A DNA stretch of 64,000 nt. Origin: an uncultured Acidobacteriota bacterium. Its GTDB lineage: Bacteria; Acidobacteriota; Terriglobia; Terriglobales; Acidobacteriaceae. The position numbers were made by a program, and so were the translations under genes. The notes under the pieces are model-generated. The model saw only the letters and a list, made by a program, of their open reading frames with translations, was not told the DNA's origin and did no database searches. The DNA lies in the NCBI GenBank assembly GCA_963830225.1, contig CAWHLO010000003.1, forward strand, positions 253,812-317,811, read 5' to 3'. Of this stretch, positions 4,301 through 52,079 are shown one piece after another; the first letter of the stretch is position 1; the number at the start of each line of letters is the position of its first letter.

Positions 4301-4747
4301 AGAGAGCGGCGTGGTCTGCACCGTCTCATTGGAAATGACCGAACCCGTGGTAGGGTTCACCAGATTGACGGCGGCTGCGGTTGCGGAGACCTGAATATTG
4401 GTGGAGACCGCGCCTACCTTCAATTCTGGCGACAAAGTGCGTATCTCGCCAACCTGCAGGGTCAAGCCATTTTGCGTCCAGGTCTGGAAGCCGGCCATTT
4501 GAATCTTGACGTCGTAAGTAGACGCGGCAATGCTAAGAATTCGGAAATAGCCATCACTTCCAGACAGCACAGTCTTTGAAACACCCAGGCGGGTGTCGGT
4601 GACCGTCACTTTTGCGCCTGGAACAACGGCTCCGGTCGTGTCGTGTACGATGCCTTCAATTCCGCTTGTGAACTGAGCGAAAGCCGGTGCCCCTGCCAAG
4701 CCGAACGTAAGCAGCAGGAAGAACATGATAAATGTCCAACGTTTCAT
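1388..4747 (-). CDS. TonB-dependent receptor, Oar-like, with N-terminal carboxypeptidase-regulatory-like domain
   Basis: Signal peptide; GIVHDTTGAVVPGAKVTVT; plug motifs (NIYGLASLTPG, FDAQKGRNAGATVDVYTKSGSN); YFQDDWK; C-terminal PRSLQLHLRASF; RBS AAGGAG. Confidence 0.92.
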   Translation of the reverse strand: MKRWTFIMFFLLLTFGLAGAPAFAQFTSGIEGIVHDTTGAVVPGAKVTVTDTRLGVSKTVLSGSDGYFRILSIAASTYDVKIQMAGFQTWTQNGLTLQVGEIRTLSPELKVGAVSTNIQVSATAAAVNLVNPTTGSVISNETVQTTPLSGQNIYGLASLTPGMTGGGVVTGGNDNYTNEYAININAAGLRQEENGFQIDDGYTNTPSRGGGTSISPNPEIVQSVDVRTNNFDAQKGRNAGATVDVYTKSGSNQFHGTFDYYFTNDALTGLTHFENKVPSFTRNEMGATMGGPVFKNKLFWFGAIDVLRESNPSSYTATVETQDFVNWAKTYEPNTIAYQELTMAPPQHYPTTGLVPYSTYILPSSQGGTPGYFAPPSGAAGAALQNINIIGTIPVSYSSPKDGYQWSFRIDDYLGNNDRLYVDVIRTSYNTPGGGTRPASVQGNKNSSDFINFNWTHTFNSHLINETGANLIRPYGSNTTQTATEGIPYINVTNLAGFGSWAPGNFTQSTYSWRDVMTATIKTHTLKFGVDLFNTREVDHQQGAFTRPTFNFRNLIDFIQDKPVYQRGPAVNLQNHQQAPYDRDYRDFIQGYYFQDDWKVMPRLTLNMGVRYDGMVNFFSIYRPILSRFNLGAGSTWDARVASGTAALANTSHVLDHNIGGFTPRVGFAWDIFGNGRTALRGGFGMFEDQPPYLHITDSTAGNLPNYFTPVDDVTAGQPTPTPFICTPNGAWNVSCPVLDTSNATIDPNTGALLINGVVQRAGMGGYNPDFKMQQVEAWSLSVQQQFRNNLIMQLNYSGTEAHHLLEFNNDINRFAGDLIQNNNVLTRLNPNFSGTAWGNSDANSFGNYGSVSVVRSFTNGFSLRGIYTYGKTLDTMSQAQSLDSGSITSNTNDVYISNDLAYQRGRADFDIRQQFTANGIWDVPSPYSSRALKALLGGWEFGGVWVGYTGLPFTVHNSSAFVPVCSGNAALVNDQCPQGTTIVGDAGGDYNADGLNNDLPNEPSFGRHLSGQSKKQFLNGIFQSSAFPSPSLGVPGNLGRNTYDNPGYKIMNFTFEKYFNAPWFFAEKIKIEAKGEVFNLFNRTNLGSVDSSLTDSTFGKSTSQLPPRSLQLHLRASF

Positions 4748-4801
4748 GCTGGTCTCCTTTTTGAATCTCGCTCTGTTTCCGTGCCGGGCTGTGGGTAATC
4801 C

Positions 4802-7294
4802 TTAGCGCCCAACGACGCTTACAATGTTTGCGTCTGATCCGGTCCAGGCCTGGGGCCCTGTATGTGTCAATCGGCCGGCCGTATCGTTCCAATGCAAGTG
4901 AGTGATCTTGAAGTCACCCTTTTCGTACTCGTAGGTATGTCCGTCATCGCTGTAAAGGGCAAAGTCGCCATCCGCGCCCGGATAAACGAGCACACGAGCA
5001 ATCTTCTGCGGCTCCGCGGTGCTGAGAATTCTGCTACCCAGTGGAATGATTGATCCCGCACGGACAAACAGCGGAATCGTGTCAATCGGCGCGGCTACCT
5101 CAACTGTCTGGCCGCCCTTCAATCGCTGATCCGTCCAGTAGTTGTACCAGTCGGTTCCAGCAGGGAGATAGACCTTGCGGCTCGTGGCTCCCTGCCGGGT
5201 AACCGGGGCTACCAGAATTGCCGGACCAAACATATATTCGTCGCCTATATTCGACACATTCGGATCATTGGGAAAATCCATGAACAGCGCCCGCATATAC
5301 GGTGCGCCGGTCTGGTACGTGTGAAACGCGGCGGAGTAAATGTAAGGCAGCAGCTGATAGCGCAGGCGCAGATACTTTTCGAGTATGGGCTCGGCTTGTT
5401 TTCCATACGACCATACTTCGTTATGTTTTCTTTCTCCGTGAGCCCGCATTACCGGCTGGAAAACTCCCCATTCAAACCAGCGCACAAACAGTTCGGGATA
5501 GTCTTCGTAACCGTCGACGTTTGCCCGCGCATCTGAAGGGTCAACCAAAGGCTTATGCGCCGGGTGGTAATTGGCAGGAATTTCCGGTGAGAAGAACCCT
5601 GCAATATCCGTGTCCCAGTAGGGCATTCCGGAGGCGGTGAAATCCAATCCCGCAGAGATAGAACGCTTCAGCATGTCCCAGGTGGACATGATGTCGCTCG
5701 ACCAGAAGACAGTTCCATTTCGCTGCGCTCCAAGATAGGCCGCGCGGGCGAGGGAAAATACCCGGCGGCTGTACCCGTAATCGCGCCGGAAGCCCTCATA
5801 AACGGAAGCGGTGTGAAAAAGGGGATAAACGTTGTAATAACGACGACCTGAGCCGACGTAGAAGAAGTCGTTGGTAGGATCGGTGTCCGGTTCGGTCTCA
5901 TCAAGCCAGATGTAGTTGAAGCCGTCAGGCTTAATATAGCGATCGCGGATCGTATCCCACCACCACTTGGCAGCGGCAGGGTTTGTGGTGTCGATGTTGG
6001 GCCCAATCACGTCCTTAAAGTGACCAAAATCCGGCTTGCCGTCAGCGGTGTGAATGAGCCATCCCTTTTGTTTCAGCATGTCGTAGTAGCGTGAGCCGGG
6101 GGAGAAGTGCGGCCAAACGCTGAGCAGGGTGGTGATGCCCATCGCATGAAGCTGTTTGTTCATGGCAGCCGGATCAGGCCATCGCTTCGGGTCGAGGTCC
6201 ATATTCCCCTGTTTGGTCATGTTGAGGAAGTCCACGACGATAACATCGAGTGGTAAATCGCGGTCGCGATAGCCTTTCGCGACAGCCATAAGCTGGTCCT
6301 GAGTGGGATAGATTGCCTTGCTCTGGATGTAGCCGTATACGGCTTTCGGCAACAGGTGCGCGATGCCGGTGAGCTGGCGATAACCCTCGTAAATCTCGTC
6401 AGTGTTGTTGCCCGCGATCACAAAGAACGAAACGCGGTTTCCCACTGCCGACGACCACACATTCTGCAGGTTGAAACCCAGATCGACTGTGGTTTTGGAG
6501 GGGTTATCCCAGATCAGGCCGTAATCCCGGCTCGACACCATGAATGGAACACAGACAGTCTCTCCCCCGATGGCGTTGTACTGATGCCAGCAGTCGATAC
6601 GATGGTCGCGTAAATCAAGAAAGCCCTGCTGGTGCTGGCCCAGGCCGTAGTAGTGCTCACCGGCCGGAGAGTCAAAGGTAGCGGAAACCCTGTAACCAGG
6701 ATCCGATTTTTGGCCGTTTGCAGCACCGCCGGAGGAGGCTACCGGCCGGTTGGGAATCATGATCCAGCGGCGCATGGTTAGCAGCGGCTTGCCGGATGCC
6801 GTTGTTATCGAGATCGTGTCATTGTATGGTCCGTTTCCACGACTTCTGCCGCCGAAGTAGTGTTCTCTAAGTGACTCATTCAACGCATCGAGCGGCATAC
6901 GGTGAGGTGGCGGCAGGTTCGCCGGGGCCACGCGGACGACCATCCGGCTCGAGCGAATCACCTCGTATCCCTCGGAGCCCTGCTCGTGGGTCCAGCCGGT
7001 CATCGAAGGCGTGCCCACAAATCCGTATCCGGGAGCTGCGAGGGCCGCAGACCTGTCGGAACTCAATGTGATCCGAACGATATTGGGCGCATATGGCTCA
7101 ATCACCACGGTCCTGCCTTGGCGCGAAAGCACCACCTGCGTGTCCGCACTCCAGGCAGCCTGGCAATTCAGAGAAAAGATCCCCAGCGCGACCACGGCCG
7201 CGACCCCGAGAATGGAAGACAAAAGCGCCCGGTTCGGACCCTCTCCCGTTCGCCTGTCGAGAGCTACTGAGTGTTGCCTGACTCCCTTTTTCAT
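4802..7294 (-). CDS. Secreted glycoside hydrolase family 31 (alpha-xylosidase-like)
   Basis: YYGLGQHQ, WLDETEPD (nucleophile), WSSDI (acid/base), RWFEWGVFQPVMRAHG, EYMFGPAILVAPV. Likely start is ATG 7294 (MKKG), not 7417. Confidence 0.9.
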   Translation of the reverse strand: MKKGVRQHSVALDRRTGEGPNRALLSSILGVAAVVALGIFSLNCQAAWSADTQVVLSRQGRTVVIEPYAPNIVRITLSSDRSAALAAPGYGFVGTPSMTGWTHEQGSEGYEVIRSSRMVVRVAPANLPPPHRMPLDALNESLREHYFGGRSRGNGPYNDTISITTASGKPLLTMRRWIMIPNRPVASSGGAANGQKSDPGYRVSATFDSPAGEHYYGLGQHQQGFLDLRDHRIDCWHQYNAIGGETVCVPFMVSSRDYGLIWDNPSKTTVDLGFNLQNVWSSAVGNRVSFFVIAGNNTDEIYEGYRQLTGIAHLLPKAVYGYIQSKAIYPTQDQLMAVAKGYRDRDLPLDVIVVDFLNMTKQGNMDLDPKRWPDPAAMNKQLHAMGITTLLSVWPHFSPGSRYYDMLKQKGWLIHTADGKPDFGHFKDVIGPNIDTTNPAAAKWWWDTIRDRYIKPDGFNYIWLDETEPDTDPTNDFFYVGSGRRYYNVYPLFHTASVYEGFRRDYGYSRRVFSLARAAYLGAQRNGTVFWSSDIMSTWDMLKRSISAGLDFTASGMPYWDTDIAGFFSPEIPANYHPAHKPLVDPSDARANVDGYEDYPELFVRWFEWGVFQPVMRAHGERKHNEVWSYGKQAEPILEKYLRLRYQLLPYIYSAAFHTYQTGAPYMRALFMDFPNDPNVSNIGDEYMFGPAILVAPVTRQGATSRKVYLPAGTDWYNYWTDQRLKGGQTVEVAAPIDTIPLFVRAGSIIPLGSRILSTAEPQKIARVLVYPGADGDFALYSDDGHTYEYEKGDFKITHLHWNDTAGRLTHTGPQAWTGSDANIVSVVGR

Positions 7295-7635
7295 AGACCG
7301 ACCTTGGATGGAGGAGGCGGAACACCGCATGCGAAGGCTTTTCCCGCCTCCATCGAAAGATGGAAAACAATACCGCGAGAAAGTTTGAGTCCGTATTGGA
7401 GAACCGACAAGTAACACACGGTATATTTACTGTTTAACTAGCTGATATTCAGACATTTATTTCCAAATGGAAATTCGGCGTCCAACGCGGTTCCATATGG
7501 GTGCAGGAGCATGCGACGGGGCGCTGTGCGGCGCCGTTCAGCCGGGATGAAGCCCGTTGGGCCATCCCCGCACCCATGCACAGGTGGAAATCGACACCGC
7601 CTCCCTCCACAAATTCCACGAAAAGGAATCGAGGA

Positions 7636-7661
7636 CAGTTCCGAAAAGCAGTTCCGAAAAG
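7636..7661. repeat. Perfect 13-bp tandem direct repeat CAGTTCCGAAAAG x2
   Basis: 7636-7648 and 7649-7661 are identical; located in the divergent intergenic region. Confidence 0.9.
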
Positions 7662-7721: not shown

Positions 7722-7750
7722 TTGACAATAATTTCGCGTCTTGCTTTACT
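7722..7750 (+). promoter_or_regulatory. Putative sigma70 promoter for regulator/CRTAC1/TPR genes
   Basis: TTGACA-N17-TTTACT. Confidence 0.45.
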
Positions 7751-7913
7751 TATGCCGCACTCGAAATGCCCTTTCTCTGCGCTGATGAACGTAATATGTA
7801 TTTTTTGCCTGCTCCTCGCAGGAAAGCGCAGCACAATAACGGCTCATTCGCAAACGGCTTATTTGCAGCGTTGAAGCGCCGACCTCGGAAGAGTCTCGAT
7901 GGCGGGTCAGTCC

Positions 7914-9212
7914 ATGAAGTCAGTTCTCGAATTGCCGAAGAACAGCGAGTCCCCTGAATGCTCGCCGGAAAATGACCTTACTGGCCGGTCGAAAGTGCTT
8001 CAGGAGCTTGACAACATTCTGTCGAGCCGCTACTTCAAGAGCGCAGACCGCTGTAAACAATTCCTTCGTTTCGTGGTTCTGAGCACGCTCGACGGTTACC
8101 CCGAGCGGCTCAAGGAACGCACCATCGGAACTGAGGTGTTTCAGCGTCCTCCGGGATATGCCACGGGAGAGGACCCTGTGGTTCGGGTTCAGGCCGGTGA
8201 AGTCCGGCGGCGCCTCGTTCAGTACTACCAAGAGACACCGCAACCATCTCCAGTGCGCATTGAATTGCCGGTGGGCTCATATGCGCCAATTTTTCATTGG
8301 GATGCCAGCCCGGGAGTCCCAAAGGCGCCTCCGGATGCGCTTCCCGCTTCTCGGCGAATGCCTCGGCTCAAGGCGATCTCCTTCGCGACTGTCGCACTTC
8401 TTGCCGTTCTTGGAGCCGCCGCTCTCATTCATTCGTTAGTTCGCACAGCGGATTCCAAGACTGCGCTCACAGAATTCTGGGGGCCAGCCATTACAAGCCA
8501 CCAACCCATCCTCATTTGTCTCGCAAACGCCTCAGACCGTCCCACCGAGGAGAACTCCCAGCCTTCCTCCTCACAAGCTGATTCGAACACCCCCCAAACC
8601 GAGCCCAAGGCTGTCGATGCTTCGTTGAATTTTTTTCGGGACCAAGACACCGCCAACAACGAATCTTCGGTTTCGCCCGAGATCGTTCCCGCGGCCGATG
8701 CCTCTGTTGCTGTCGCCCTGTCAGCCCTCTTCGGAAAGCTCAACAAGACAACACAGTTACGCATCGGCGCAACGGCGAGGTACGAGGATCTCAGCAATTT
8801 CCCAGCGGCAGTGATTGGAGGGTTCAACAACAGGTGGACCATGCAACTGGTGTCGAACCTGCACTTTGCTTTCCTTCAGGACCACGGGCAGTACATGATC
8901 CGCGAGCGGATTCCAGGCGGAAGATCCTGGACCACTCGGCTCGGACCCCACGGCGAGACGGTGGAAGACTTCGCCATTGTGAGCCGCCTGATTGACTCCA
9001 AAACCGGTCAGTTTACAGTCACAATAGCCGGGATCGGTCCCCGGGGAACTCAAGCCGCCGGCGAGTTTGTTTCTTCCTCGCGTGCGCTTGAACACGGACT
9101 TGCCGGAGCTCCAGCCGGCTGGCAGAACCGCAACCTGGAAGTGCTGCTGCAAACCAGCGTGACAGACTCGGTGGCGGGTCCGCCCCGGGTCATCGGGATT
9201 TTTGCCTGGTGA
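7914..9212 (+). CDS. Putative membrane-anchored one-component regulator (N-terminal cytoplasmic HTH-like domain, TM helix, extracytoplasmic domain), copy 1
   Basis: N-terminal ...FLRFVV...LKERTIGTEVF..PPGYATGEDPVVRVQAGEVRRRL..YY...RIELPVGSYAP; hydrophobic ISFATVALLAVLGAAALI; C-terminal IGGFNNRWT...DFAIVSR..DSKTG...AGIGPRGTQAAGEF. DNA-binding function is inferred. Confidence 0.65.
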   Translation: MKSVLELPKNSESPECSPENDLTGRSKVLQELDNILSSRYFKSADRCKQFLRFVVLSTLDGYPERLKERTIGTEVFQRPPGYATGEDPVVRVQAGEVRRRLVQYYQETPQPSPVRIELPVGSYAPIFHWDASPGVPKAPPDALPASRRMPRLKAISFATVALLAVLGAAALIHSLVRTADSKTALTEFWGPAITSHQPILICLANASDRPTEENSQPSSSQADSNTPQTEPKAVDASLNFFRDQDTANNESSVSPEIVPAADASVAVALSALFGKLNKTTQLRIGATARYEDLSNFPAAVIGGFNNRWTMQLVSNLHFAFLQDHGQYMIRERIPGGRSWTTRLGPHGETVEDFAIVSRLIDSKTGQFTVTIAGIGPRGTQAAGEFVSSSRALEHGLAGAPAGWQNRNLEVLLQTSVTDSVAGPPRVIGIFAW

Positions 9213-9310
9213 TTTTCAGAAACACAGTCAACAATGACGGTTCTTTTCGCCGCGGTCAGGCAACTCAGGCGCAGAGGCGGACGCGGCCGGAGGGAGAAGC
9301 TGTCTTGTTC

Positions 9311-11158
9311 ATGCGTCGCGTGCTTTTGGGCGTGTTACTTTTCTCGCCAGCTGTAGCCGTATCCGGTCATGCTCGAAAGCCTGTACAGTCCAACCAGCCC
9401 ATGGCAAGCGAAACGGGAGGCATCGCCTCCGCCGGCATCTTCGCTCCTGTTTACGATGCGCAGAGACGGCCTATCACCGCCGGCGGATTTGTCGACAAAG
9501 GCACTATTGTCTTCGAAGATGACACCGAAGCCGCGGGGCTCTCAGGATGGCGCCATGTGATGGGCACACCCCAGAAAAAGTACATCCTCGAAACGGACGG
9601 CTCAGGCGTTTGCCTACTGGATTACGACAACGACGGGTGGCTGGATATATTTCTGGTAAACGGCTCGACTTATGATGCGCTGGACGGCAAAGCCATCCCG
9701 CCACACGCCGCGCTCTTCCATAACAACCATGACGGCACTTTTACCAACGTCGCTAACTTTGCGGGTGTGACCAATGACCGATGGGGCTTCGGCTGCGCGG
9801 TGGGCGACTACAACAACGACGGCTGGCCCGATATTTTTGTAGCCAATTTCGGCAAGAACCGCCTCTTCCGAAACAACCACGATGGAACATTTACAGACGT
9901 CGCAGAAAAAGCAGGTGTTGCTCTTGGCAACTGGTCGGACGGTGCAACCTGGGGCGATTATGATGGTGACGGCCGCCTCGATCTCTTCGTATCCGGTTAT
10001 ATCCACTATGACTTAAACCATCAGCCCAGCGCCGAAGACGGAAGTGCATCGACCGCACATTGCCAGATGCGCGGCGTACCGGTGATGTGCGGTCCCCGCG
10101 GACTTCCCGGTGAGCCGGACCACCTGTTTCACAACAACGGTGACGGCACGTTCACTGACGTAAGCGTGCATGCCGGGGTCTCCGACCCCAACCACTTCTA
10201 TGGATTCACCGCGATCTTCGTTGATGTGAACAACGACGGCAAAGTCGATCTGCTTGTTGCCAACGACTCGGAGCGCAATTTTCTCTACATCAACAACGGG
10301 GATGGTACTTTCGACGACGAGAGTGTACTCTCCGGCTTTGCATACAACTTCGACGGCCGCGAGATCGCCTCCATGGGTCTGGCAGTGGGCGATTATTTGA
10401 ACGACGGCCGGGTCGACGTGCTGGATACCGATTTTTCAGACGACTTCAAGGCGCTCTATCGCAACGATGGCGATGCCAGCTTTACCGACGTTAGCCGCCA
10501 GTCGGGCATCGCCCAGATTGCTATTCCCTTTGTCGGCTGGGGCGACGGCCTCTTTGACTACGATAACGACGGCTGGAAAGACATTATGATGATCAACGGC
10601 CACGTCTATCCCCAGGTGAACGAGCACAATTGGGGGACGACCTACGCCGAGCGACCGCTGTTGTTTCACAACGACCACCACGGAAAGTTCGTATACGTCC
10701 CGCCTGTGAAGGGATCGGGGCTGGCCGTGCTCACTCCCGGACGTGGCGCCGCTTTTGGCGACCTTTTCAACAATGGCAAGATCGACGCTGTTATCAATCC
10801 CGTGGACGGGCCACCGGTTCTGTTGAAGAACGTCGACCCCGATCATCACCACTGGGTAGAGCTCAAGCTCATTGGGGGGCTTAAGAGTCCGCGCGACGCT
10901 GTCGGCGCCACGGTCTATCTGAATGCGGATGGAATGCGTCAACGGGAGGACATCATGAGCGGGGGAAGTTATATTTCATCGAACGATCAACGTGCGCATT
11001 TCGGGCTGGGCAATGCAACCGACGCCGGAACCGCCGAGATTCACTGGCCATCCGGCCGTGTGGAAAAGGTCAAGATCCCTGCCGTCGATCACATTTTCGC
11101 CATCACCGAAGGGAAAGGGATAACCGGTGTGTTTTGTGCCAAACCGCCGTGCTCTTGA
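9311..11158 (+). CDS. CRTAC1-family (FG-GAP repeats + ASPIC/UnbV) exported protein
   Basis: Six DxD/NxDG.xD repeats (DYDNDGWLD, DYNNDGWPD, DYDGDGRLD, DVNNDGKVD, DYLNDGRVD, DYDNDGWKD); C-terminal GGSYISSNDQRAHFGLG; signal peptide MRRVLLGVLL at 9311. Confidence 0.9.
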   Translation: MRRVLLGVLLFSPAVAVSGHARKPVQSNQPMASETGGIASAGIFAPVYDAQRRPITAGGFVDKGTIVFEDDTEAAGLSGWRHVMGTPQKKYILETDGSGVCLLDYDNDGWLDIFLVNGSTYDALDGKAIPPHAALFHNNHDGTFTNVANFAGVTNDRWGFGCAVGDYNNDGWPDIFVANFGKNRLFRNNHDGTFTDVAEKAGVALGNWSDGATWGDYDGDGRLDLFVSGYIHYDLNHQPSAEDGSASTAHCQMRGVPVMCGPRGLPGEPDHLFHNNGDGTFTDVSVHAGVSDPNHFYGFTAIFVDVNNDGKVDLLVANDSERNFLYINNGDGTFDDESVLSGFAYNFDGREIASMGLAVGDYLNDGRVDVLDTDFSDDFKALYRNDGDASFTDVSRQSGIAQIAIPFVGWGDGLFDYDNDGWKDIMMINGHVYPQVNEHNWGTTYAERPLLFHNDHHGKFVYVPPVKGSGLAVLTPGRGAAFGDLFNNGKIDAVINPVDGPPVLLKNVDPDHHHWVELKLIGGLKSPRDAVGATVYLNADGMRQREDIMSGGSYISSNDQRAHFGLGNATDAGTAEIHWPSGRVEKVKIPAVDHIFAITEGKGITGVFCAKPPCS

Positions 11159-11307
11159 GCTTCATGAGCAAACGGCAAGACGCTGGGTTCTGGAATGAAA
11201 ATCAGGCACATCTCGCCGTTGGGAGTAGTGGAGTCATACTTATGGAACCGGAAAAGGACCTCGACGTTGATGGCGCGGGTATAAGATCACGCTGGAGCCC
11301 ATCGCAG

Positions 11308-12795
11308 ATGTTTCCACTCAAATTAATTACGGTAATAGCTTTGGCATGGACGCTCTCGGCCCATGCACAGGACATCGGGATTTCCATTTCTTCCATTGAG
11401 TCGCAAATCCGTTCGCAACAGTACGATCAAGCTGGGAGGGCGCTGAAGACTGCCCTGCGTCAAAATCCAGGCGATCACAGGCTCTGGACGCTGGAAGGTA
11501 TTTGCTTTGCATTGCAGGGAAACGACGCCGGAGCGCTCACAGCATTTAATCATGCGATTCGCATCTCGCCTGATTACGTTCCTGCTCTAAAGGGTGAAGT
11601 GCAAATCCTCTACAAGACCGGAGACGCGCGCGCGATTCCCCTATTGAAGAGAATGCTGAAATCCGATCCGGGCGACACAACCGGACACGAAATGCTCGCC
11701 GGGCTCGAAGCGCATGCCGGTGACTGTCACGCTGCGGTGACGCAATTCGATCTCAGCAAAGATGCGATCGCTAAACATCCGGCCTCGTTGGAAGCCTATG
11801 GCGATTGCCTGTTCAAACTGGGCCGGACTGCCGATGCAATTCCCGTTTTCCGCCAGCTCGTTCCGCTTCTTCCCGGCCGCACTTATCCAAGCTACGATCT
11901 GGCGGTCTTACTCGTCGCCACGCACAAAGATGCGGAGGCCATCAAGGTTCTTGAACCCTTTCTAACTCCCGATCAAACCGACGCCGATCTTCTCAGTCTG
12001 GCGTCACAAGCCTATGAGGCCACAGGCAGCACACCGAAAGCAGTAGCGCTGCAACGTCAGGCCATCGTTGCCGATCCCACGGATGCCTCAAATTACGTTT
12101 CGTTTGCCGTCCTCTGCCTGAGGCACGATTCCTTCAAGGTGGGAATTGCTATGCTCAATGCCGGGCTCAAACGCATTCCCGACAACTCTTCGCTTTATGT
12201 CTCGCGCGGAGTGCTCAACGTACAGCTGGGCGAGTTCGACAAAGCAGAAGCTGATTTCAAAATGGCGGAAAAACTTGATTCCGCACACACCATTGCTGCC
12301 TATGCCGGCGACCTCGCTACCCTTGAAAGAGACAATCCTAACCTTGCTCTCGCCCATGTCCGCGAGCAATTGAAATCTCACCCTCGCGATCCCCTCTTAC
12401 ATCTTCTGTTGGCCAAATTGATTATGACGAAAGGGCCCGATACGCAGAGCCGCGAATTCAAAGAGGCTATGCACCACACTTTGGTTGCTGTAGAGATCAA
12501 ACCGGATCTGGTCGGCGCCCACGATCAATTGGCTAGCATGTACATGAGCCTCGGTCAGTACGATCAGGCAATTAAAGAGTGTCAGACAGCTCTGAAGTAC
12601 GACCCGTCCAACGAAACGGCCTTGTATCACCTGATCATCTCTCTGCGTCACACCGGGCACAAAGATGATCTGCGGCCGATGGTTAAGCGTCTGGCTGAGT
12701 TGCACAAGGAATCCTTGCAGCGGGAAACGGACCGCAAGAAGTTCCGGCTCGTGGAGGTAGCCGCGCCAACGACACAATCCGGAGCAGCACATTGA
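11308..12795 (+). CDS. Exported tetratricopeptide-repeat protein
   Basis: Signal peptide MFPLKLITVIALAWTLSAHA (alternative start 11242); repeated TPR helices (A..AF..AI...PD). Confidence 0.85.
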   Translation: MFPLKLITVIALAWTLSAHAQDIGISISSIESQIRSQQYDQAGRALKTALRQNPGDHRLWTLEGICFALQGNDAGALTAFNHAIRISPDYVPALKGEVQILYKTGDARAIPLLKRMLKSDPGDTTGHEMLAGLEAHAGDCHAAVTQFDLSKDAIAKHPASLEAYGDCLFKLGRTADAIPVFRQLVPLLPGRTYPSYDLAVLLVATHKDAEAIKVLEPFLTPDQTDADLLSLASQAYEATGSTPKAVALQRQAIVADPTDASNYVSFAVLCLRHDSFKVGIAMLNAGLKRIPDNSSLYVSRGVLNVQLGEFDKAEADFKMAEKLDSAHTIAAYAGDLATLERDNPNLALAHVREQLKSHPRDPLLHLLLAKLIMTKGPDTQSREFKEAMHHTLVAVEIKPDLVGAHDQLASMYMSLGQYDQAIKECQTALKYDPSNETALYHLIISLRHTGHKDDLRPMVKRLAELHKESLQRETDRKKFRLVEVAAPTTQSGAAH

Positions 12796-13168
12796 TCCAG
12801 AACGCGCACCAGATTGGCTGCAACCTCCCTGCTCTGCGAGTGCGGAGTGTCTGGCGTAAACGGTATTTCACGTTCTTCGGAACCATGGCAGTGCAATCTC
12901 ACAGACCGGGCAGGATGACTGAAAGAACCTTGACACGAACATGAAATGCGGTCTAATTTGGTGGGCATCCAGAGGAGGTCCTCAAACGGCTTTATCCCCA
13001 ATAGTGGTGATCGGCACTACTCCAAGTAAACGATTCCACCGGTCACCAAATCAGTCAGTCTTTTATGAAGTAAACAGATAGCATTCAAGACTTCACTATT
13101 GATGAGCGGCGGAATTCATCCCTTACCACCTTCGTCGCAAGGTCTTTCAGCTGACGGTACAAGCGCAT

Positions 13169-14488
13169 ATGGCTTCAACCATCGGGCATCCCCAAGAGAT
13201 CGATAAAGCGGCCCAATCCGCTTCTGTTGGGCATCAGGAGGTGGCTCTTGTATTCGAGGAACTGGATCGAATTCTGGAAAGCCGGTTCTTCAAAAAAGCT
13301 GGGCGAAGCAGGCAGTTCCTGGACTATGTTGTTCGTCATAAATTGGAAGGCCACGCCGAACAGTTAAAGGAGCGGACGATAGGGACTGAGGTATTCCACA
13401 GAACTCCGGGGTATGCCACAGGCGACGATCCCGTCGTTCGAGTTCAGGCCGGAGAAGTGCGGCGACGATTGGAGCAATATTATCAGTCGCTCCCTTCCCC
13501 TCCTGCCGTTCGCATCGAACTCCAGCCCGGCTCGTACTCTCCCAATATTTGTTGGGCATCTGACGACCCTGTTTCCACACCTGGCGTGGCAGACCACCAT
13601 TCGTCACCAATTCCGTCTCGTAATTCTCCATTCCGCCTCGTTGCTGCAGTCGTGGTCGGGGCATGCGCCGCCCTGGCTTTCACATCCGCACTGAGCTACC
13701 TCCGCCATCGGACGAGTGAAAGCCAATCGACCGCGCAGGCAAAGTTTTGGGCTCCAGCATTCTCGACGTCACAGCCGGTTCTCATCTGCCTGGCCAAGGG
13801 CGTCACATACAGGCCGAGCCTGAAACTCTATCGGTTGTATGCGCGATCGCACCCTGGAGCATTTCAGACCGAGGTGGAACGTTCCAACAATCCGCTGCCG
13901 CTGAAAAGCGATCAGCCAATTGTCTGGGGCGACATGGAACTGTATGACGAATACGGAGTCGCCGTCGGTGATGTTTCCGCTGCGCTTGATATATCGGCCT
14001 TTCTGGGCCGACTCGACAAACCTCTTCAGGTAAGGATCGGGTCAGACTATTCTTTTGAGGATTTGCGAGAATCGCCAGCGGTAATGATTGGAGCATATAA
14101 CAATGCCTGGACTATGCAATTGATGTCTGGGCTTCATTTTGCGTTCGTTGACGATCCTCAACGGAATCTTTCGATTCGGGAGCAGGTTCCGGGAGGGAGA
14201 GTCTGGCGCGTAAAGACCGACAGTTCCGGTACCGTTGTGCGGGATTACGGGGTGGTTTCGCGGTTGCTTGAGCCCAGGACCGGACAGTTTACAGTGATAC
14301 TCGCCGGCCTCGGCACCAGAGGCACCGAGGCGGCCGCTGAGTTTGTCTCCAATAAGAACACACTGGATCAGGCACTCAGAAATATGCCGCGGAACTGGCA
14401 AACGAAAAACATGGAGATCGTGCTGGAAACGAATGTCATCCATTCCGTTCCATGCCCCCCGCACGTCGTCGCGGCCTACTATTGGTGA
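13169..14488 (+). CDS. Putative membrane-anchored one-component regulator, copy 2 (paralogue of 7914..9212)
   Basis: LKERTIGTEVFHRTPGYATGDDPVVRVQAGEVRRRL; TM segment LVAAVVVGACAALAF; IGAYNNAWT; AGLGTRGTEAAAEF. Confidence 0.65.
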   Translation: MASTIGHPQEIDKAAQSASVGHQEVALVFEELDRILESRFFKKAGRSRQFLDYVVRHKLEGHAEQLKERTIGTEVFHRTPGYATGDDPVVRVQAGEVRRRLEQYYQSLPSPPAVRIELQPGSYSPNICWASDDPVSTPGVADHHSSPIPSRNSPFRLVAAVVVGACAALAFTSALSYLRHRTSESQSTAQAKFWAPAFSTSQPVLICLAKGVTYRPSLKLYRLYARSHPGAFQTEVERSNNPLPLKSDQPIVWGDMELYDEYGVAVGDVSAALDISAFLGRLDKPLQVRIGSDYSFEDLRESPAVMIGAYNNAWTMQLMSGLHFAFVDDPQRNLSIREQVPGGRVWRVKTDSSGTVVRDYGVVSRLLEPRTGQFTVILAGLGTRGTEAAAEFVSNKNTLDQALRNMPRNWQTKNMEIVLETNVIHSVPCPPHVVAAYYW

Positions 14489-14859
14489 GTTGTCATCCCC
14501 TTTTGCTACTTTGCTCCGATTCCGATTGCACATATCAAAAATTTCCTGCAAAATTTCCGCTCCATCGAAATGCTCTTGGACAATTGCCCCACCTCCGATC
14601 GCCCGGCTCTACCTGGAGGCCATGCATTCACCTGCACAGTCAACTCGCCTATGTTGCAGCCGTATTGCCAATTGGCAGATCTCGTTCAGAACCCTTTACA
14701 TAGTGCGGAAGCGGCACAATAATGAATTCAAGTCAGAGAATATGCCATTATCCCTGGTCCGAATCTTTATGCAAGTCCTTGAGAGAATGAGCACGGACTA
14801 CTGCAAAGGCAGCCAGTACTTCTCTGTCGGGTCCCGTAATAAAGTAAGTGAGATTTCCG

Positions 14860-16650
14860 ATGGCTGACTCGATTGAGTGTCACGCGTTGCTCGAAGGCTT
14901 ATTTGACGCCAACCCCGATGTGGTCATCGTGACCGACTGGGAAGGCCGGATCCTCAAAGCAAATTCTCGAATTGAAAGTGTCTTCTGGTATACCGGCACC
15001 GAGTTGATCGGGCTGCCGATTGAAACTCTCATTCCAGAGCGATTTCGGTCCGCGCATCAGGGCAGCCGACAACGATATACCGCAGAACCGCACGATCGCC
15101 CAATGGGCACCCAGTTGAATCTTTGCGGGAGACGGAAAGATGGCATGGAGTTCCCCGTTGATGTGGCGTTAAGCCCGTTCGAAACGAAGGGAAGACGATA
15201 CGTTCTGTGCATGATCCGCGATATCACCGAACGAAAGAAAGCGGAAGAAGCTCAGCGGCGCGGTGAACAATTGCAGGCACTTTTCAGGCAGACATCCGAC
15301 GCTCTTCTCGTAGTCGACACGGAAGGGAAAATTCGGGAAGTAAATCCTCAACTCGAACGTTACTTCGGCTATTCGAGGGCCGAACTGATCGGGCATGCCG
15401 TAGAGATGTTGATCCCCGAAGCGCTTCGTGTGAATCACGAAGCACTCCGGAGGGATTACACAATGCGGCCGCATCCGTCTCCAATGGGATTTGGGAGGGA
15501 GATCCATGGTATCCGCAAGGACGGAAGTCTTTTCCCCGCCGATATCATGCTCACCCCGGTTGAAATTGCAGAAGGCCGGGCCGTGCTGTGCGTCGTCCGG
15601 GATATTTCAGAAAAGATCCGGCTTCAGGAGGAACTGGAACGAAACGAGCGGGAAAGACGCTATTTAGAGAAAGAATTCGACGCCGTCCCCGGCCTGGAGG
15701 GAATTATCGGGAAAAGCGAGGCGTTAAAGGAGGTCATGAGGAAAGTTGAGATCGTCGCGTCGACAGACGCGACCGTTCTCCTTCTGGGAGAAACCGGAAC
15801 CGGTAAGGACGTTATCGCCCGCGCCATTCACCAGCTGAGCCGTCGCAGCCAAAAGAGCCGGATCACTCTCAACTGCGCAGCCATTCCGGCGGGACTTTTG
15901 GAGAGCGAACTTTTCGGACACGAGAAAGGGGCATTCACAGGTGCCACCGAGCAGAAAGTAGGCCGGATCGAACTTGCTCATGGAGGAACACTGGTTCTCG
16001 ATGAAATCGGAGAACTCCCTTTGGAACTGCAGCCAAAACTTTTGCGCGTGTTGCAGGAGAAGATGTTTGAAAGAGTGGGAGGGAGACGCACGATTCCCGT
16101 CGACATCCGATTGATAGCAGCTACCAATCGGGATCTCGGGGAGATGGTCATCGATAAGGAGTTTCGGAGCGATCTCTACTACCGCCTGAACGTCTTCCCT
16201 ATCGTTCTGCCTCCTTTGCGCGAGCGCCGGGAAGATATCCCGATGCTGGTGGAGTACTTCGTCGAAAAGCATGCCAGAAATCTGGATCGGCGCATTGAAA
16301 GGATTCCAACGGAGGTGATGGAAGCACTGGCGCGCTGGGATTGGCCGGGAAATGTGCGCGAACTGGAGAACTTCATCGAGAGATCTGTCATCCTGACAAG
16401 AGGTCCGGAATTGTGGGCGCCTCTGGCGGAATTGACGCGCGCCGAACACACTGTTCCCGACGCACAGGATCCTCCCAATGGGAGTTCGACGCTTGAATCG
16501 ATGGAGCGTCAACATATTCTGTCCGTTCTGCGTGAAACCAGGGGAATCATCTCGGGGCCGCGCGGCGCCGCAGTCCGGCTGGGCATGAAGAGAACGTCAT
16601 TAAATTGGAAATTAAAGAAACTGGGAATTGAACGTAACGACTATATGTAG
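14860..16650 (+). CDS. Sigma54-interacting transcriptional activator with two PAS domains (PAS-PAS-AAA-Fis HTH)
   Basis: Two PAS repeats (LIPERFR..H; RKDG.FP.D/V.L.P); GETGTGKD; ESELFGHEKGAFTGA; LDEIGELP; WPGNVREL; HTH; no receiver domain. Confidence 0.93.
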   Translation: MADSIECHALLEGLFDANPDVVIVTDWEGRILKANSRIESVFWYTGTELIGLPIETLIPERFRSAHQGSRQRYTAEPHDRPMGTQLNLCGRRKDGMEFPVDVALSPFETKGRRYVLCMIRDITERKKAEEAQRRGEQLQALFRQTSDALLVVDTEGKIREVNPQLERYFGYSRAELIGHAVEMLIPEALRVNHEALRRDYTMRPHPSPMGFGREIHGIRKDGSLFPADIMLTPVEIAEGRAVLCVVRDISEKIRLQEELERNERERRYLEKEFDAVPGLEGIIGKSEALKEVMRKVEIVASTDATVLLLGETGTGKDVIARAIHQLSRRSQKSRITLNCAAIPAGLLESELFGHEKGAFTGATEQKVGRIELAHGGTLVLDEIGELPLELQPKLLRVLQEKMFERVGGRRTIPVDIRLIAATNRDLGEMVIDKEFRSDLYYRLNVFPIVLPPLRERREDIPMLVEYFVEKHARNLDRRIERIPTEVMEALARWDWPGNVRELENFIERSVILTRGPELWAPLAELTRAEHTVPDAQDPPNGSSTLESMERQHILSVLRETRGIISGPRGAAVRLGMKRTSLNWKLKKLGIERNDYM

Positions 16651-16875
16651 TCAGTTTTGACGGCATGCCGCCAACGCTTGCCATTACTGTTCCTGCCTGT
16701 AAGCACACTCGAAGCTCCGATCACAACGTAACTCCTATCTTCTGTACCCACCGAAATCGTCATCTCCCGTTCATGCACTTTGGTCTTCGGCATGCACTTC
16801 ATGGTTTCCACGGCTCGTCAGGGCCATGGCCTAAATGAAGCAACCGTCAGATTAGCTACAGACAGGGAGAGACTA

Positions 16876-19491
16876 ATGAAATTGAATGCCGGATTGAGCA
16901 ACAACCATGAGCAGGACGCCACCGCATCCTGCAGCATCGCTCCACCGGACTTTGCGCCCGCAGCGCACACTGCAAATGAAAAATTGAATAATTTTCTCGT
17001 GGCCACAACTTGCGGGCATCGAAGTGGCCACGCCGTTCGACTCCACATGGAGACTGGCTGGACTACGGTTTGCCTCGCTTGCTGGCGTTCCAATCGGCAC
17101 GCTTATCGTTCTCGGGAAAGCCGGCCTCGCACGTGGAAATCCGGAATCCGAAGCAGTCATCTCCCGCAACGGATGCCACAAACGGCAGAGCCATCCGCGC
17201 AGGCCAGCCCCGTAACAGATTTCAAGCGCTGCCTGGTGACAGGAGTTGCGGGATTCATTGGGTCGCATCTCGCAGAAAAGCTGTTGGCCGAAGGCCATGA
17301 AGTGATCGGCATCGACTGCCTCACCGACTATTACAGTTCCGAATTGAAGAACCAGAACCTCAGCGGATTCCTCTTTCATCCCCATTTTTGGTGGGTTCAT
17401 GAGGATCTCAATACGACCGATCTGGCGAAACTGCTGGAGGGTATCGATTGGGTGTTTCACCTTGCCGGGCAGCCAGGAGTGCGAGGGAGTTGGGGAACCG
17501 GCTTTGAACCCTACATCCGCAACAATATCGACGCCACGCAGCGGTTACTGGAAGCGGTGCGGACAAGCGATGTGAAGAAGTTCGTCTATGCGTCGTCTTC
17601 CTCCGTCTACGGACGTACTGCTCCGCCGATGTCCGAATCGAACAGAACTCAACCATATTCACCGTATGGCGTGACCAAACTAACCGCGGAAAACTTGTGC
17701 ATGCTGTATGCTCAGAACTTTGACCTGCCTATCACTGCGGTGCGCTATTTCACGGTGTTTGGACCCCGCCAGCGGCCCGACATGGCCTTTACGCGGTTCC
17801 TGCGCGACCTGCTTGAGAACCGCGAACTGCACATCTATGGCGACGGCAAGCAGACGCGCGACTTCACTTATGTAAGCGACGCCGTAGAGGGAACACTGCT
17901 TGCCGCGCGTCATGGTACTCCCGGCGAGGTGTACAACCTGGGAGGCGGATGCCCGGCAGCGTTAAGTGACGCGATCCGGGCAATGGAGTGCGCCACCGGC
18001 CATCCTGCACGCATGGTCTACACTCCCATGAAAAATGGAGACGTGGTGGACACCCTGGCCGACACTATGAAAGCCCGCGCCGACCTGGGCTACTTCCCCG
18101 CAGTGAGCCTGGAAGAAGGGATCAAGTTGCAGGCTCGCTGGGTTCGGGAGCAGATCGCCCACTCCACGATCGAGCCTCAAATCATGCTTCCAGCTCCGAG
18201 CGTTGAACGCCTCGGGATCGGAAGAGAAGAGTTAGACGATTCTCCAGACTTCCAGCCGCGCGTTCTTCTTTATTCGCATGACACCTTCGGTCTGGGCCAC
18301 CTGCGGAGAAATCTGGCGATTGCCGAGCACCTGCTTTCGCGGAATGATCCGCGTTTTTCCGTGATGCTGTTAACCGGCTCGCCGGTGGCATCATCCTGGC
18401 CGCTGCCCAAGGGACTGCAGGTGAAGGTTCTTCCGCCAGTGGTTAAGACCGGTGCGGAACAGTACGCCCCACGCGGTGGTTCGGAGACATTCGACGCAGT
18501 GAAGGCGAAGCGTGAAGAAGCAATTCTTAACGCAATTCGCGATTACCGCCCTGACATTTTCCTGGTGGACCACGCTCCGGCAGGCATGAAAGGCGAGTTG
18601 CTTCGCCCTCTGGCGTATATCCGCGAGGAAATGCCAGAGACACGCACCGTAATCGGTCTTCGGGACATTCTGGACAGTCCGCAAACTGTGCAACAGCTTT
18701 GGGAAGAACAAGGAATCTATCAGCTTCTCGATGAGTCTTACGACCAAGTGCTCGTTTACGGCAACCGCCGTCTTTTCGATCCCATCCGCGAATACAACTT
18801 CCCCAAAACGGTTGCCATGAAAACGGTGTTCTGCGGTTACATCGCTCGGCGTATCGGCGGCTTTGCAGCTTTCGGTCTCAACGATTGGCAAAAGCGACAC
18901 GACCGGTCCTTTGTTTTGGTCACGGCCGGCGGCGGTGGAGACGGATATGCGTTGATGGATGGCTATCTTCGCGCCCTGGAGAAAATCGGACCCAGCAGTG
19001 CGGAAAGCTTCCTTGTTCCCGGTCCGCTGATGGCCGCGGAGCAGAGGCAAGCCTTGGAATCCGCGGCGGCAAAACGGCCTGACGTAAGGATCATCCACAC
19101 CACGGAACTTGAATCCTTTATCTGGAGAGCGAATCTCATCGTTTCCATGAGCGGATACAACACTACGGCGGAGATTTTAGCGGCGAAGAAGCCCGCTATC
19201 CTGGTGCCGCGCGCGGCGCCGCGGGCTGAACAACGCCTGCGCGCAACGCTGCTGAGCGACTTGGGACTGGCCTCGTCCATCACGCCGGAAGAGGATATGG
19301 TTTCACGCCTGGCCGAACTCCTTCAGGCGGGACTTGCCGGTCAACTTACGCCACATTGCGATTGGAATGCAGTGGACCTGGGCGGTGTGCGTCACGTTGG
19401 AGAGGCGTTGAGTGGTCTCGTCGAAGAACGCATTCGCCGCCGGCCGTATGCCATTTCCAGATTCGAAGATGCAACTGGAGTTGTGGCATGA
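16876..19491 (+). CDS. Fusion: NAD-dependent sugar epimerase/dehydratase + GT-B glycosyltransferase (GT28-like), with Cys/His N-terminal extension
   Basis: LVTGVAGFIGSHL, YASSSSVYG, YGVTK, RYFTVFGPRQRPDMAF; then VLLYSHDTFGLGHLRRNLAIA, VLVTAGGGGDG, IVSMSGYNT, PRAEQRLRA. ATG 16876 has RBS AGGGAG; ATG 17173 is an alternative start without an RBS. Confidence 0.85.
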   Translation: MKLNAGLSNNHEQDATASCSIAPPDFAPAAHTANEKLNNFLVATTCGHRSGHAVRLHMETGWTTVCLACWRSNRHAYRSRESRPRTWKSGIRSSHLPQRMPQTAEPSAQASPVTDFKRCLVTGVAGFIGSHLAEKLLAEGHEVIGIDCLTDYYSSELKNQNLSGFLFHPHFWWVHEDLNTTDLAKLLEGIDWVFHLAGQPGVRGSWGTGFEPYIRNNIDATQRLLEAVRTSDVKKFVYASSSSVYGRTAPPMSESNRTQPYSPYGVTKLTAENLCMLYAQNFDLPITAVRYFTVFGPRQRPDMAFTRFLRDLLENRELHIYGDGKQTRDFTYVSDAVEGTLLAARHGTPGEVYNLGGGCPAALSDAIRAMECATGHPARMVYTPMKNGDVVDTLADTMKARADLGYFPAVSLEEGIKLQARWVREQIAHSTIEPQIMLPAPSVERLGIGREELDDSPDFQPRVLLYSHDTFGLGHLRRNLAIAEHLLSRNDPRFSVMLLTGSPVASSWPLPKGLQVKVLPPVVKTGAEQYAPRGGSETFDAVKAKREEAILNAIRDYRPDIFLVDHAPAGMKGELLRPLAYIREEMPETRTVIGLRDILDSPQTVQQLWEEQGIYQLLDESYDQVLVYGNRRLFDPIREYNFPKTVAMKTVFCGYIARRIGGFAAFGLNDWQKRHDRSFVLVTAGGGGDGYALMDGYLRALEKIGPSSAESFLVPGPLMAAEQRQALESAAAKRPDVRIIHTTELESFIWRANLIVSMSGYNTTAEILAAKKPAILVPRAAPRAEQRLRATLLSDLGLASSITPEEDMVSRLAELLQAGLAGQLTPHCDWNAVDLGGVRHVGEALSGLVEERIRRRPYAISRFEDATGVVA

Positions 19492-23898: not shown

Positions 23899-24089
23899 AT
23901 AGGAGAGGGTCAGCTTCACGCGACGAACATGGAACGATGAATCTCTCGCAGCCTCACCGTTCTTTCTTCAACAGCAGAACCAATGGATATGTTGTGCTGC
24001 GGCTGTAACTGACCCACGTCCAAGTGGCTTGGCACCAGCCTCAATCACACGAAGAAACGCAGGCAGCGCAGGCTGCATAGGAGCAAGGA

Positions 24090-25394: not shown

Positions 25395-25437
25395 TGCCGA
25401 CTTGCCTAGGTTGGCATCCACTTGGAAGCACAACGCC

Positions 25438-28723: not shown

Positions 28724-28779
28724 GTCATGTTAGACGCTGCTTGTCGATAAATGTGTAATGAATTAATGACTCAGTACAC
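27626..28779 (-). mobile_element. IS630-family element
   Basis: TIRs GTGTCCTGAGTCATTAATTC / GTGTACTGAGTCATTAATTC (1 mismatch), flanked by duplicated TA within CTAG. Confidence 0.93.
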
Positions 28780-28795
28780 TAGCAGCAGTAGCCGT

Positions 28796-28844
28796 GGGGA
28801 GGGAATGTGGGAATCAGCTTTATCGATTTCCACATTTCCTCCCC
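28796..28844. repeat. 20-bp-stem imperfect palindrome in the 3' non-coding part of the outer IS
   Basis: GGGGAGGGAATGTGGGAATC-agctttatc-GATTTCCACATTTCCTCCCC. Confidence 0.85.
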
Positions 28845-28860
28845 CAGGCCGCGGCGTGTT

Positions 28861-30896: not shown

Positions 30897-31117
30897 TGCA
30901 CGCGGCTTTGACGCGCTGAATTGGAGTGCTGGATCGGCTCAGGTTTCATACCTGTACCGATCCAGCTCCGGAGCCGGATTCGCGGATTGGCGCCCTGATT
31001 TTTTATCGGGCTGCGCCACTGAGAGAACCTCGCCAGAAGACGGTACTAGGCTCAGCCAGGCTCGGTTCGCTTACAATACTGCAGTTGGCTGACAGGTCGA
31101 TTGGCGTGGACACCGGA

Positions 31118-51971: not shown

Positions 51972-51992
51972 ATCTTAGGGTTTCCCTAACGA

Positions 51993-52030: not shown

Positions 52031-52079
52031 TCAGGGGGACTTTTTGAATTTGCTTACCCGGCGCGATAATGGAATAGAG

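Follow-up and report, generated by a model that had tools for sequence, protein, structure and literature searches.

Putative membrane-anchored regulators and a phased cis element at TonB-dependent glycan-uptake operons of Acidobacteriota

ToxR, TcpP, CadC, and VtrA are bitopic membrane regulators: each has a cytoplasmic N-terminal output domain, one transmembrane helix, and a periplasmic sensor, and they are often co-transcribed with a periplasmic partner (ToxS, TcpH, or VtrC; PMC9214523). Here we describe two paralogous proteins with the same bitopic layout, which we call ParA and ParB, from a 64,000-nt stretch of contig CAWHLO010000003.1 from an uncultured member of the Acidobacteriaceae (hereafter, the window; coordinates refer to it unless a locus with an L number is named). 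Their genes enclose a CRTAC1-like gene and a tetratricopeptide repeat (TPR) gene and lie beside a divergent operon that encodes a TonB-dependent receptor (TBDR) and two glycosidases. On balance, we believe that ParA and ParB act in the manner of ToxR, as transmembrane one-component regulators of a glycan-uptake operon that is not of the Sus type.

The Sus-like polysaccharide-utilisation loci (PULs) of Bacteroidota also cluster a TBDR with glycoside hydrolases (GHs) and with a dedicated sensor-regulator that spans the envelope. Our locus differs from them in that it has no SusD, a TBDR of the CarboxypepD_reg plus OMP_b-brl_4 type, and no SusR, hybrid two-component system (HTCS), or extracytoplasmic function (ECF) sigma factor; the ParA/ParB family would fill the part that is played in Bacteroidota by SusR, by HTCS, or by pairs of ECF and anti-sigma factors. 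CRTAC1-like genes (FG-GAP/ASPIC-UnbV) also occur beside SusC/D pairs. In Proteobacteria such as Xanthomonas, the carbohydrate-utilisation loci that contain TBDRs (CUT loci) combine a TBDR and carbohydrate-active enzymes for plant glycans, without SusD, with a local regulator that is cytoplasmic and of the LacI, GntR, or AraC type. These are likewise SusD-less clusters of TBDR and glycosidase genes with a locally encoded regulator, but the regulator candidate in our locus is anchored in the membrane and comes from a family that has not been described.

A bitopic family linked to glycan-uptake genes

ParA (437 aa; 7899-9212, plus strand) and ParB (439 aa; 13169-14488, plus strand) are 45% identical across 414 aa (BLASTP, E = 6e-117). 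An earlier sequence-only reading of this DNA had described two paralogous membrane proteins that share the block LKERTIGTEVFxRxPGYATGxDPVVRVQAGEVRRRL, each with one transmembrane (TM) helix and a related extracytoplasmic domain. Our reading of the open reading frames (ORFs), together with BLASTP and Pfam, bears out this architecture, including the paralogy, the shared block, and the single helix and related domain of each protein. The start that had been given for ParA (7914) is an internal ATG of its ORF.

Each protein has a single hydrophobic segment (aa ~157-181 in ParA and ~155-178 in ParB), and we found no signal peptide in either. Because there is no signal peptide and just one TM helix, the N-terminal domain (N-domain) must be cytoplasmic and the C-terminal domain periplasmic, with the helix between them as in ToxR-like receptors. 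ParB is the canonical family member. In its AlphaFold2 model (from a 35-sequence alignment; the mean predicted local distance difference test score, or pLDDT, is 76 overall and above 90 in the N-domain), the N-domain at aa ~21-130 is followed by a disordered linker (132-153), the TM helix (155-182), and a periplasmic alpha/beta domain (189-439).

The family is large and has gone without annotation. ParB matches at least 1,628 clusters at 90% identity from Terracidiphilus and other Acidobacteriaceae; every one of them lacks a name or is labelled "hypothetical," and no Pfam domain has been precomputed for any of them. Most of the listed full-length matches have 385-500 aa and align to ParB over nearly their whole length, at down to 26% identity, with the two-domain layout preserved. 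When we searched exhaustively with just the N-domain (ParB aa 21-134), 15,320 clusters at 50% identity were found (E ≤ 1e-3). Conservation within the protein is highest in the N-domain, where about 40 of 114 positions are invariant. A published census of transmembrane regulators was built on Pfam models of DNA-binding domains (PMC10269533), so this family could not have been counted.

To see which genes accompany the family, we searched 80 genome loci (10-kb flanks, all from Terriglobia) with the proteins from the window. The sequence-only reading had asked whether the family occurs beside TBDR and GH genes elsewhere, and the linkage turned out to be strong and specific: GH31 is present in 68 of the 80 loci, a TBDR in 50, and one or the other in 72. 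In 38 loci, a GH31 or TBDR gene is divergent from the family gene and ends within 1.5 kb of it. The linkage withstands rearrangement, as we found loci with the TBDR first or the GH31 first, convergent layouts, and TBDRs that are just 23-29% identical; eight loci have two family copies. CRTAC1-like and TPR genes are more loosely linked (37/80 loci each), and the accessory or substrate-binding part that the sequence-only reading proposed for their products is not established. The sigma54 activator and exopolysaccharide (EPS) genes that lie 3' of ParB in the window were not syntenic in any of the 80 loci, which rules out that the module is part of that cluster.

We saw no conservation of any other regulator gene near the family genes. 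As had been claimed from the sequence, neither SusD nor SusR/HTCS is recognisable here: there is no place for a SusD gene in the operon of the window, Pfam scans of the cluster found no SusD family, and no SusR, HTCS, or ECF sigma gene lies beside the family gene. For distant members (26-30% identity), we read the neighbors from precomputed Pfam annotations. P0245 is divergent from a TBDR and GH31, P0256 from a TBDR followed by hydrolase-like genes, P0270 from GH92, and P0263 from a truncated gene of at least 1,004 aa.

The N-domain also reaches Proteobacteria. A protein from Rhizobium leguminosarum (P0164, WP_261331436) that is labelled as an adenylate cyclase consists of the N-domain twice in tandem, followed by a TM helix, a FlgO/TolB_N-like domain, and TPRs. 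Pfam found no cyclase domain in it, so its label is probably a misannotation.

A tripartite element upstream of the uptake genes

The candidate operator of ParA and ParB is a tripartite element, AAACAGTAAATATACCGTGTGTTACTTG, at 7408-7435 on the minus strand, 77 nt 5' of the start of the 842-aa GH31 protein. It was missed by the sequence-only reading; we found it by k-mer enrichment in divergent intergenic regions followed by inspection. Its consensus has 27-28 nt, TTACnGTAA-N3/4-(C/A)ACnGTGT-N-TTACTTG, and the starts of its three cores (ACnGT, ACnGT, and ACTTG) are exactly 10 bp apart, or 11 in some copies, which is one helical turn. In the window, the cores are ACAGT, ACCGT, and ACTTG, with spacings of 11 and 10 bp. 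A scan of the window gave this one match only, while none was expected and none was seen in 100 shuffles. At their target promoters, domains of the OmpR type bind direct repeats that are in phase with the DNA helix, an arrangement to which the three cores at 10-11 bp are similar.

By a defined rule, there are 65 instances of the element in 57 of 81 sequences; a stricter pattern is found in 49 of 88 loci. All 65 instances are oriented towards a gene that begins 2-476 nt downstream: a TBDR in 30 cases, GH31 in 21, and another gene in 14. Those that we sampled from the last group encode GH116, MGH1-like/GH63, GH127, a Mal s 1-like propeller, or LuxR-type response regulators. Where a locus has a second family copy (L017, L021, and L026), the GH31 gene that is divergent from it carries an element of its own. 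Across the 1.69 Mb of loci, the spacing of ACnGT pairs peaks at 10 bp (75 pairs) and 11 bp (41 pairs) and is at about 10-20 pairs elsewhere. Even in the intergenic region of the distant member P0256 (L085; 29% identity), the phased cores are exact (ACCGT-N5-ACAGT-N5-ACGGT).

Because these loci had been chosen through the family protein, we also searched metagenomes with DNA alone, using the pattern GTAAN{2,4}CACNGTGTNTTACTTG, which leaves the first core unspecified. This returned 87 stretches. A divergent family gene lies within 2.5 kb of 45 of the 57 hits with a complete first core ("ACn" present), and of 37 of the 41 complete hits that have at least 1.5 kb of upstream sequence. In contrast, this holds for just 2 of the 30 hits without the first core, and many of those 30 are repeated sequences. 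Downstream of the complete hits are GH31 or TBDR genes. These independent data thus tie the family gene closely to the complete element as a cis-trans pair. A conserved and helically phased repeat at the promoters of putative targets gives independent support for a DNA-binding regulator, as judged from sequence comparison.

Alternatively, the element could be a promoter, or the operator of an unlinked regulator, that belongs to a mobile TBDR/GH module, with the family gene co-inherited and functionally unconnected. Since every locus that we sampled belongs to a single class (Terriglobia), the instances are not independent of one another, and palindromes that resemble LacI/PurR operators (see below) are also enriched in these intergenic regions. 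However, the pairing of element and gene persists through rearrangements, in second copies that have their own element, beside TBDRs that are 23-29% identical, and with different GH families. The phased cores are also retained at the 29%-identity member, and the window's other TBDR-GH3 cluster has no copy of the element. We consider mere co-inheritance to be very unlikely.

In one subgroup of Terriglobia (L049, L050, L064, L067, L069, L073, and L076; at about 12050-12120 on the minus strand of these loci), the element precedes a gene for a LuxR-type response regulator that is convergent to the family gene. Such an arrangement may point to a regulatory cascade.

The family genes seem to have promoters of their own. 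Upstream of ParA is the promoter-like site TTGACA (7722-7727), a 19-nt spacer, and TACTTA (7747-7752), and upstream of ParB, within GGTCTAATTTGG, is TTGACA (12930-12935), an 18-nt spacer, and TAATTT (12954-12959); both sites are on the plus strand. Most family genes have such a site, TTGACA-N18-20-(C)GTGTCTACTT(T)G, at 55-360 nt 5' of the start codon, and in its -10 part it is similar to boxes B and C of the element. The motif GTGTn1-3TACTT adjoins family genes in 40 of its 50 occurrences. We can rule out that GTGTnTACTT is a general -10 motif of these bacteria, since 5 of the other 10 occurrences are the tripartite element itself. The half-copy of the element in the -10 regions of the regulators suggests autoregulation, with long 5' leaders.

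The intergenic region between GH31 and ParA also contains an exact tandem 13-mer (two copies of CAGTTCCGAAAAG, 7636-7661) and a tandem 15-mer (AACGGCTCATTCGCA / AACGGCTTATTTGCA, 7838-7867) that is loosely similar to an AACGnTTT motif. We rejected both as operators because they are not conserved in the other loci.

The N-terminal and periplasmic domains

The proteins had been called ToxR/CadC-like. As a statement of homology, this is not established: PF00486 (Trans_reg_C) did not match at E ≤ 10, whether we used whole proteins or isolated N-domains, nor did it match distant members at E ≤ 0.1. More broadly, searches with ParA and ParB of Pfam (E ≤ 10), of NCBIfam (E ≤ 1), and of PDB with phmmer gave nothing meaningful, and neither did profile searches of PDB. 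A structural check of the N-domain had also been proposed from the sequence. It yielded three helices and then a hairpin, but no significant structural match. In the AlphaFold2 model of the isolated N-domain (pLDDT 88.6), the helices are at 25-39, 48-56, and 69-87 and the hairpin is at 94-98/105-109; in the full-length ParB model, the helices are at 22-36, 45-60, 68-76, and 88-107 and the hairpin is at 114-118/125-129.

The order of elements in the N-domain is alpha1, alpha2, a long alpha3, and a beta-hairpin that ends in an invariant G-S-Y-x-P. OmpR/PhoB-type domains end in RG-x-GY-x-F, and the modelled order of elements is suggestive of a parallel to them. The top match of the N-domain in PDB by Foldseek is the DNA-binding domain of the OmpR-family protein DrRRA (3q9v), which is not significant (E = 2.2, TM-score 0.35-0.42). 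We also aligned a profile of the N-domain (154 sequences) to a profile of PF00486 with hhalign, which gave a score of 17.8 (P = 0.02). In column-shuffled controls, the mean score was 12.5 ± 2.2, and 1 of 60 controls attained the real score. This low-stringency alignment is collinear through alpha1 (FL.YVV ~ AF.vL.YLV), alpha3 (VVRV.AgeVRrRL ~ VLKshIldiR.aL), and the wing (vrIeLp.GSY ~ FIETlprRGY). The PF00486 profile was made from 120 proteins that were fished with one true Trans_reg_C domain from related loci, and its diversity is low (an effective number of sequences, Neff, of 2.4). As the Trans_reg_C profile matched a single protein in the 1.69 Mb of loci, no richer profile could be built from them. 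We also looked for a transitive link, but a hidden Markov model of the N-domain misses this one true Trans_reg_C protein.

A protein from L014 offers another comparison. It is a CadC-like protein whose N-terminus is a genuine Trans_reg_C domain, and the rest of it has the FlgO/TolB_N-like plus TPR layout of P0164. In these two proteins, the N-domain appears to take the place of Trans_reg_C, which is suggestive of a winged helix by analogy; both differ from the ParA/ParB family in their C-terminal sensor parts. Taken together, these indications are suggestive, and they are insufficient to identify the N-domain as a winged helix.

We therefore describe the family as one that would act like a ToxR-type regulator, and we do not file it in the ToxR/CadC family. 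Besides the lack of a recognisable PF00486 domain, the N-domain is predicted to have an extra N-terminal helix where OmpR-type domains have a four-stranded sheet; the periplasmic domain has no relationship to its counterparts in ToxR and CadC; and the family's apparent targets are glycan-uptake operons. The earlier idea of transmembrane one-component sugar sensors thus gains from the topology, from the linkage to TBDR and GH genes, and from the phased element, but not from homology to ToxR/CadC.

Several observations weigh against our proposal. No DNA-binding domain was recognised by sequence searches of Pfam, NCBIfam, or PDB; Foldseek found no significant match even with a confident model of the N-domain (best E = 2.2); and the HH probability of a relationship between the N-domain and PF00486 is just 2.4%. 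The N-domain is not basic (16 K+R versus 17 D+E). Two of the six informative distant members (P0219 and P0231) have no adjoining TBDR or GH gene. The linkage of element and gene could reflect the inheritance of whole modules instead of binding. Finally, AAACGnTTT-type palindromes (for example, GCAAACGTTTTC and GTGAAACGTTTCAC), which we take to resemble the operators of LacI/PurR-family regulators, lie within 700 nt 5' of family genes in 19 of 80 loci. They are about 9-fold enriched there (20 of 65 occurrences in 3.5% of the DNA), which suggests that another regulator also acts at these loci. In the window, such sites are at 7838-7867 and at about 12985.

Since the family has no recognised DNA-binding domain, it might transduce a signal without binding DNA, either as a FecR-like anti-sigma factor or as a membrane tether for a soluble factor that reads the element. 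The layout matches the FecR type (a short cytoplasmic domain, one TM helix, and a periplasmic domain), and as in the FecR/FecI/FecA system, a single-pass inner-membrane protein is encoded beside a TBDR gene. The subgroup with the element before a LuxR-type gene would also fit with a soluble factor. However, membership in the FecR-like group does not hold up: there is no adjacent ECF sigma factor, Pfam found no STN signalling domain in the TBDR of the window (1388-4747), and the family has no FecR domain (PF04773). ORFs of the ECF type were found in 3 of 89 sequences and never adjoined the family gene (in a search with hand-written seed sequences). With no other regulator gene conserved nearby, we think that a transducer of this kind is unlikely, and we continue to prefer a regulator that binds the element itself.

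For the periplasmic domain, a Foldseek search with the whole ParB model, which is dominated by this domain, gave low TM-scores throughout. The best match is the periplasmic part of BcsB (E = 1.2e-3, probability 1.0, query TM-score just 0.25), a subunit of cellulose synthase whose periplasmic part binds glucan. Weaker matches are to accessory domains of GH115 and GH67. The domain has many invariant aromatic and polar residues, which would be compatible with a sugar-binding sensor, although they do not prove it.

ParA has lost part of this domain. Nearly every family member has a conserved segment of about 60 aa, equivalent to aa 207-268 of ParB. ParA instead has a low-complexity stretch rich in S, P, Q, and T at this point (aa ~207-265) and retains none of 15 marker residues. 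The same is true of the ParA-type orthologues in L002, L004, and L034, which have the same replacement and a common bracketing gene order. By sequence, ParA is a degenerate copy of the family. In L003, just a remnant of a ParA-type gene (2942-3499) is found between the GH31 and CRTAC1 genes, and L006, L015, and L045 have no ParA at all yet retain CRTAC1-TPR-ParB, so the upstream paralogue is dispensable in some lineages.

The likeness to BcsB also raises the possibility that the family is not regulatory. It could be a periplasmic protein, anchored in the inner membrane, that binds or handles glycans, for instance by handing oligosaccharides over from the TBDR to an inner-membrane transporter or enzyme, with the N-domain serving assembly or localisation. 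The invariant aromatic and polar residues and the tight linkage to uptake and hydrolysis genes would also fit with this. But it is the cytoplasmic N-domain that is most conserved (about 40 of 114 positions are invariant), and the family gene is transcribed divergently from a promoter of its own, outside the operon. Also, the N-domain is found in front of periplasmic parts of quite another kind (FlgO/TPR), which is what one would expect if it were an output module, and ParA keeps its N-domain while its periplasmic domain decays. We consider a purely glycan-handling role to be quite unlikely.

The uptake operon, its neighbors, and a proposed mechanism

The genes for GH31, the TBDR, and an MGH1-like protein are on the minus strand, with intergenic gaps of 54 and 198 nt, so that the TBDR is flanked directly by the two glycosidase genes. 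The operon lies upstream of ParA and diverges from it, which confirms the divergence that had been claimed. The first gene encodes GH31 (Pfam GH31 domains) and is listed mechanically as 4802-7417. The GTG at 7417 is inside the conserved cis element, so the real start must be lower; from the N-terminal sequence, it is probably at 7330 (MRCS..., giving 4802-7330) or 7294 (MKKG...), and a hydrophobic stretch that resembles a signal peptide follows this likely start. The TBDR (1388-4747) has PF25183 (E = 1e-124) and PF13620. The third gene, which was read in six frames, is cut by the start of the window (2-1189; 396 aa are seen) and encodes an exported MGH1-like/GH63-like glycosidase. The GH63-like assignment relies on a weak match to PF22422 (E = 1.7e-5; 25 bits versus a cut-off of 27), and this score is just below the cut-off because the protein is truncated.

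The solved structures nearest to the GH31 protein are alpha-xylosidases of xyloglucan systems. Its matches in PDB are 7kmp (E = 1.9e-127), BoGH31A (5jou, 1.1e-114), CjXyl31A (2xvg, 2.5e-114), and MeXyl31 (6e-105), versus 1e-60 or weaker for entries that are named as alpha-glucosidases or glucosyltransferases. Because the GH31 protein is closest to alpha-xylosidases, a xyloglucan-type oligosaccharide is probably the best guess for the inducer. A salt-marsh metatranscriptome, the one RNA dataset with related contigs, contains contigs that are 90-99% identical to the TBDR, GH31, ParA, and ParB genes. These contigs show that such genes are transcribed, though not where transcription starts, and one of them bridges the TBDR/GH31 junction (4521-5034), which fits an operon.

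Between ParA and ParB are two exported proteins, as had been read from the sequence; Pfam and the signal peptides agree. The CRTAC1-like protein (ORF 9209-11158, probable start 9311, plus strand) has FG-GAP repeats (PF13517, five stretches, E = 2.3e-46) that would form a beta-propeller and a C-terminal ASPIC/UnbV domain (PF07593, E = 1.5e-17), which is the makeup of the CRTAC1 family, and it matches the structure of human CRTAC1 (9etn, E = 2.3e-12). Its Sec-type signal peptide is MRRVLLGVLLFSPAVAVSGHA. The TPR protein (ORF 11134-12795, probable start 11308, plus strand) matches many TPR families in Pfam, and its Sec-type signal peptide, read from the translation, is MFPLKLITVIALAWTLSAHA. The CRTAC1-like gene begins about 100 nt after ParA and is probably co-transcribed with it. 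CRTAC1 is immediately 3' of the family gene in 13 of 88 copies, with gaps of 39-316 nt, and this placement fits co-transcription with the regulator and not with the uptake operon. The pair after ParA may be comparable to ToxS, TcpH, and VtrC.

Elsewhere in the window, an EPS or O-antigen-type cluster lies 3' of ParB (14848-26301 and 30926-32383). It includes a PAS/sigma54 activator, a fusion of an epimerase to GT28, two GT4 proteins, an ABC exporter, a UDP-glucose dehydrogenase, and a Wzy-like protein, and it is interrupted by two transposase/integrase genes (DDE_3 and rve) of insertion sequence elements (27623-30096). There is also a rhamnosidase-like gene (41856-44360) and a second TBDR cluster, with a TBDR at 48387-51968, GH3 at 53451-56150, and GH57/DUF3536 at 56282-58723. 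Neither the tripartite element nor a family gene was found in the second TBDR-GH3 cluster (48387-56150), so this system is not used by all of this organism's TBDR-GH clusters.

We propose the following mechanism. The N-domain of about 110 aa would be held at the inner membrane by the single TM helix, while the periplasmic domain of about 250 aa would sense a glycan breakdown product, probably a xyloglucan-type oligosaccharide, that enters via the neighboring TBDR. Ligand-dependent oligomerisation would set N-domains on the three phased ACnGT-type cores at 7408-7435, and their occupancy would activate or de-repress the divergent GH31-TBDR-GH63-like operon. The regulator would also control its own promoter via the half-copy of the element in the -10 region. 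The CRTAC1 and TPR proteins, if they are co-transcribed with ParA, may serve as periplasmic partners, and ParA, which has lost the conserved sensor segment, may rely on them or on ParB. In this model, the binding to DNA, the identity of the ligand, the direction in which the operon is regulated, and the parts given to CRTAC1 and TPR are all inferred.

A broader idea, which we find possible but rather doubtful, is that the N-domain is an unrecognised DNA-binding module, either a divergent or an independent lineage of winged helix, that forms the main dedicated class of regulators for TBDR-centred glycan operons in Acidobacteriota. The paralogues would each recognise an operator of phased ACnGT cores and respond to a different glycan in the periplasm, with CRTAC1/TPR partners for sensing in some systems, and the module would reach into Proteobacteria. 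If so, this would give a first function to bacterial homologues of CRTAC1, and it would extend the module to proteobacterial proteins that are now misannotated as adenylate cyclases.

A relative of this system is present in a cultured type strain. In Telmatobacter bradus DSM 23630 (L022, NZ_CP184532.1), a family gene is 54% identical to ParB, and the element TTACCGTAAGAAACTGTGTTTTACTTA lies 5' of a divergent gene for a TBDR of 1,240 aa. This strain could be used as an experimental carrier.

Acidobacteriota rank among the most abundant bacteria of soil and play a major part in the decomposition of plant polysaccharides. In the literature that we searched, we found no characterised regulator of TonB-dependent glycan uptake in this phylum and no paper on this family or its element. 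As a very large family without annotation, it is invisible to domain-based censuses of transmembrane regulators (PMC10269533). An operator-like element that is specific to the family makes it possible to predict regulons, and hence substrates, from genomes and metagenomes. If our proposal is correct, the small set of one-component membrane regulators would gain a new pairing of sensor and output, and there would be a list of parts for glycan biosensors. Most likely, the proteins of this family represent a new type of switch, anchored in the membrane, for the uptake of plant sugars in abundant soil bacteria.

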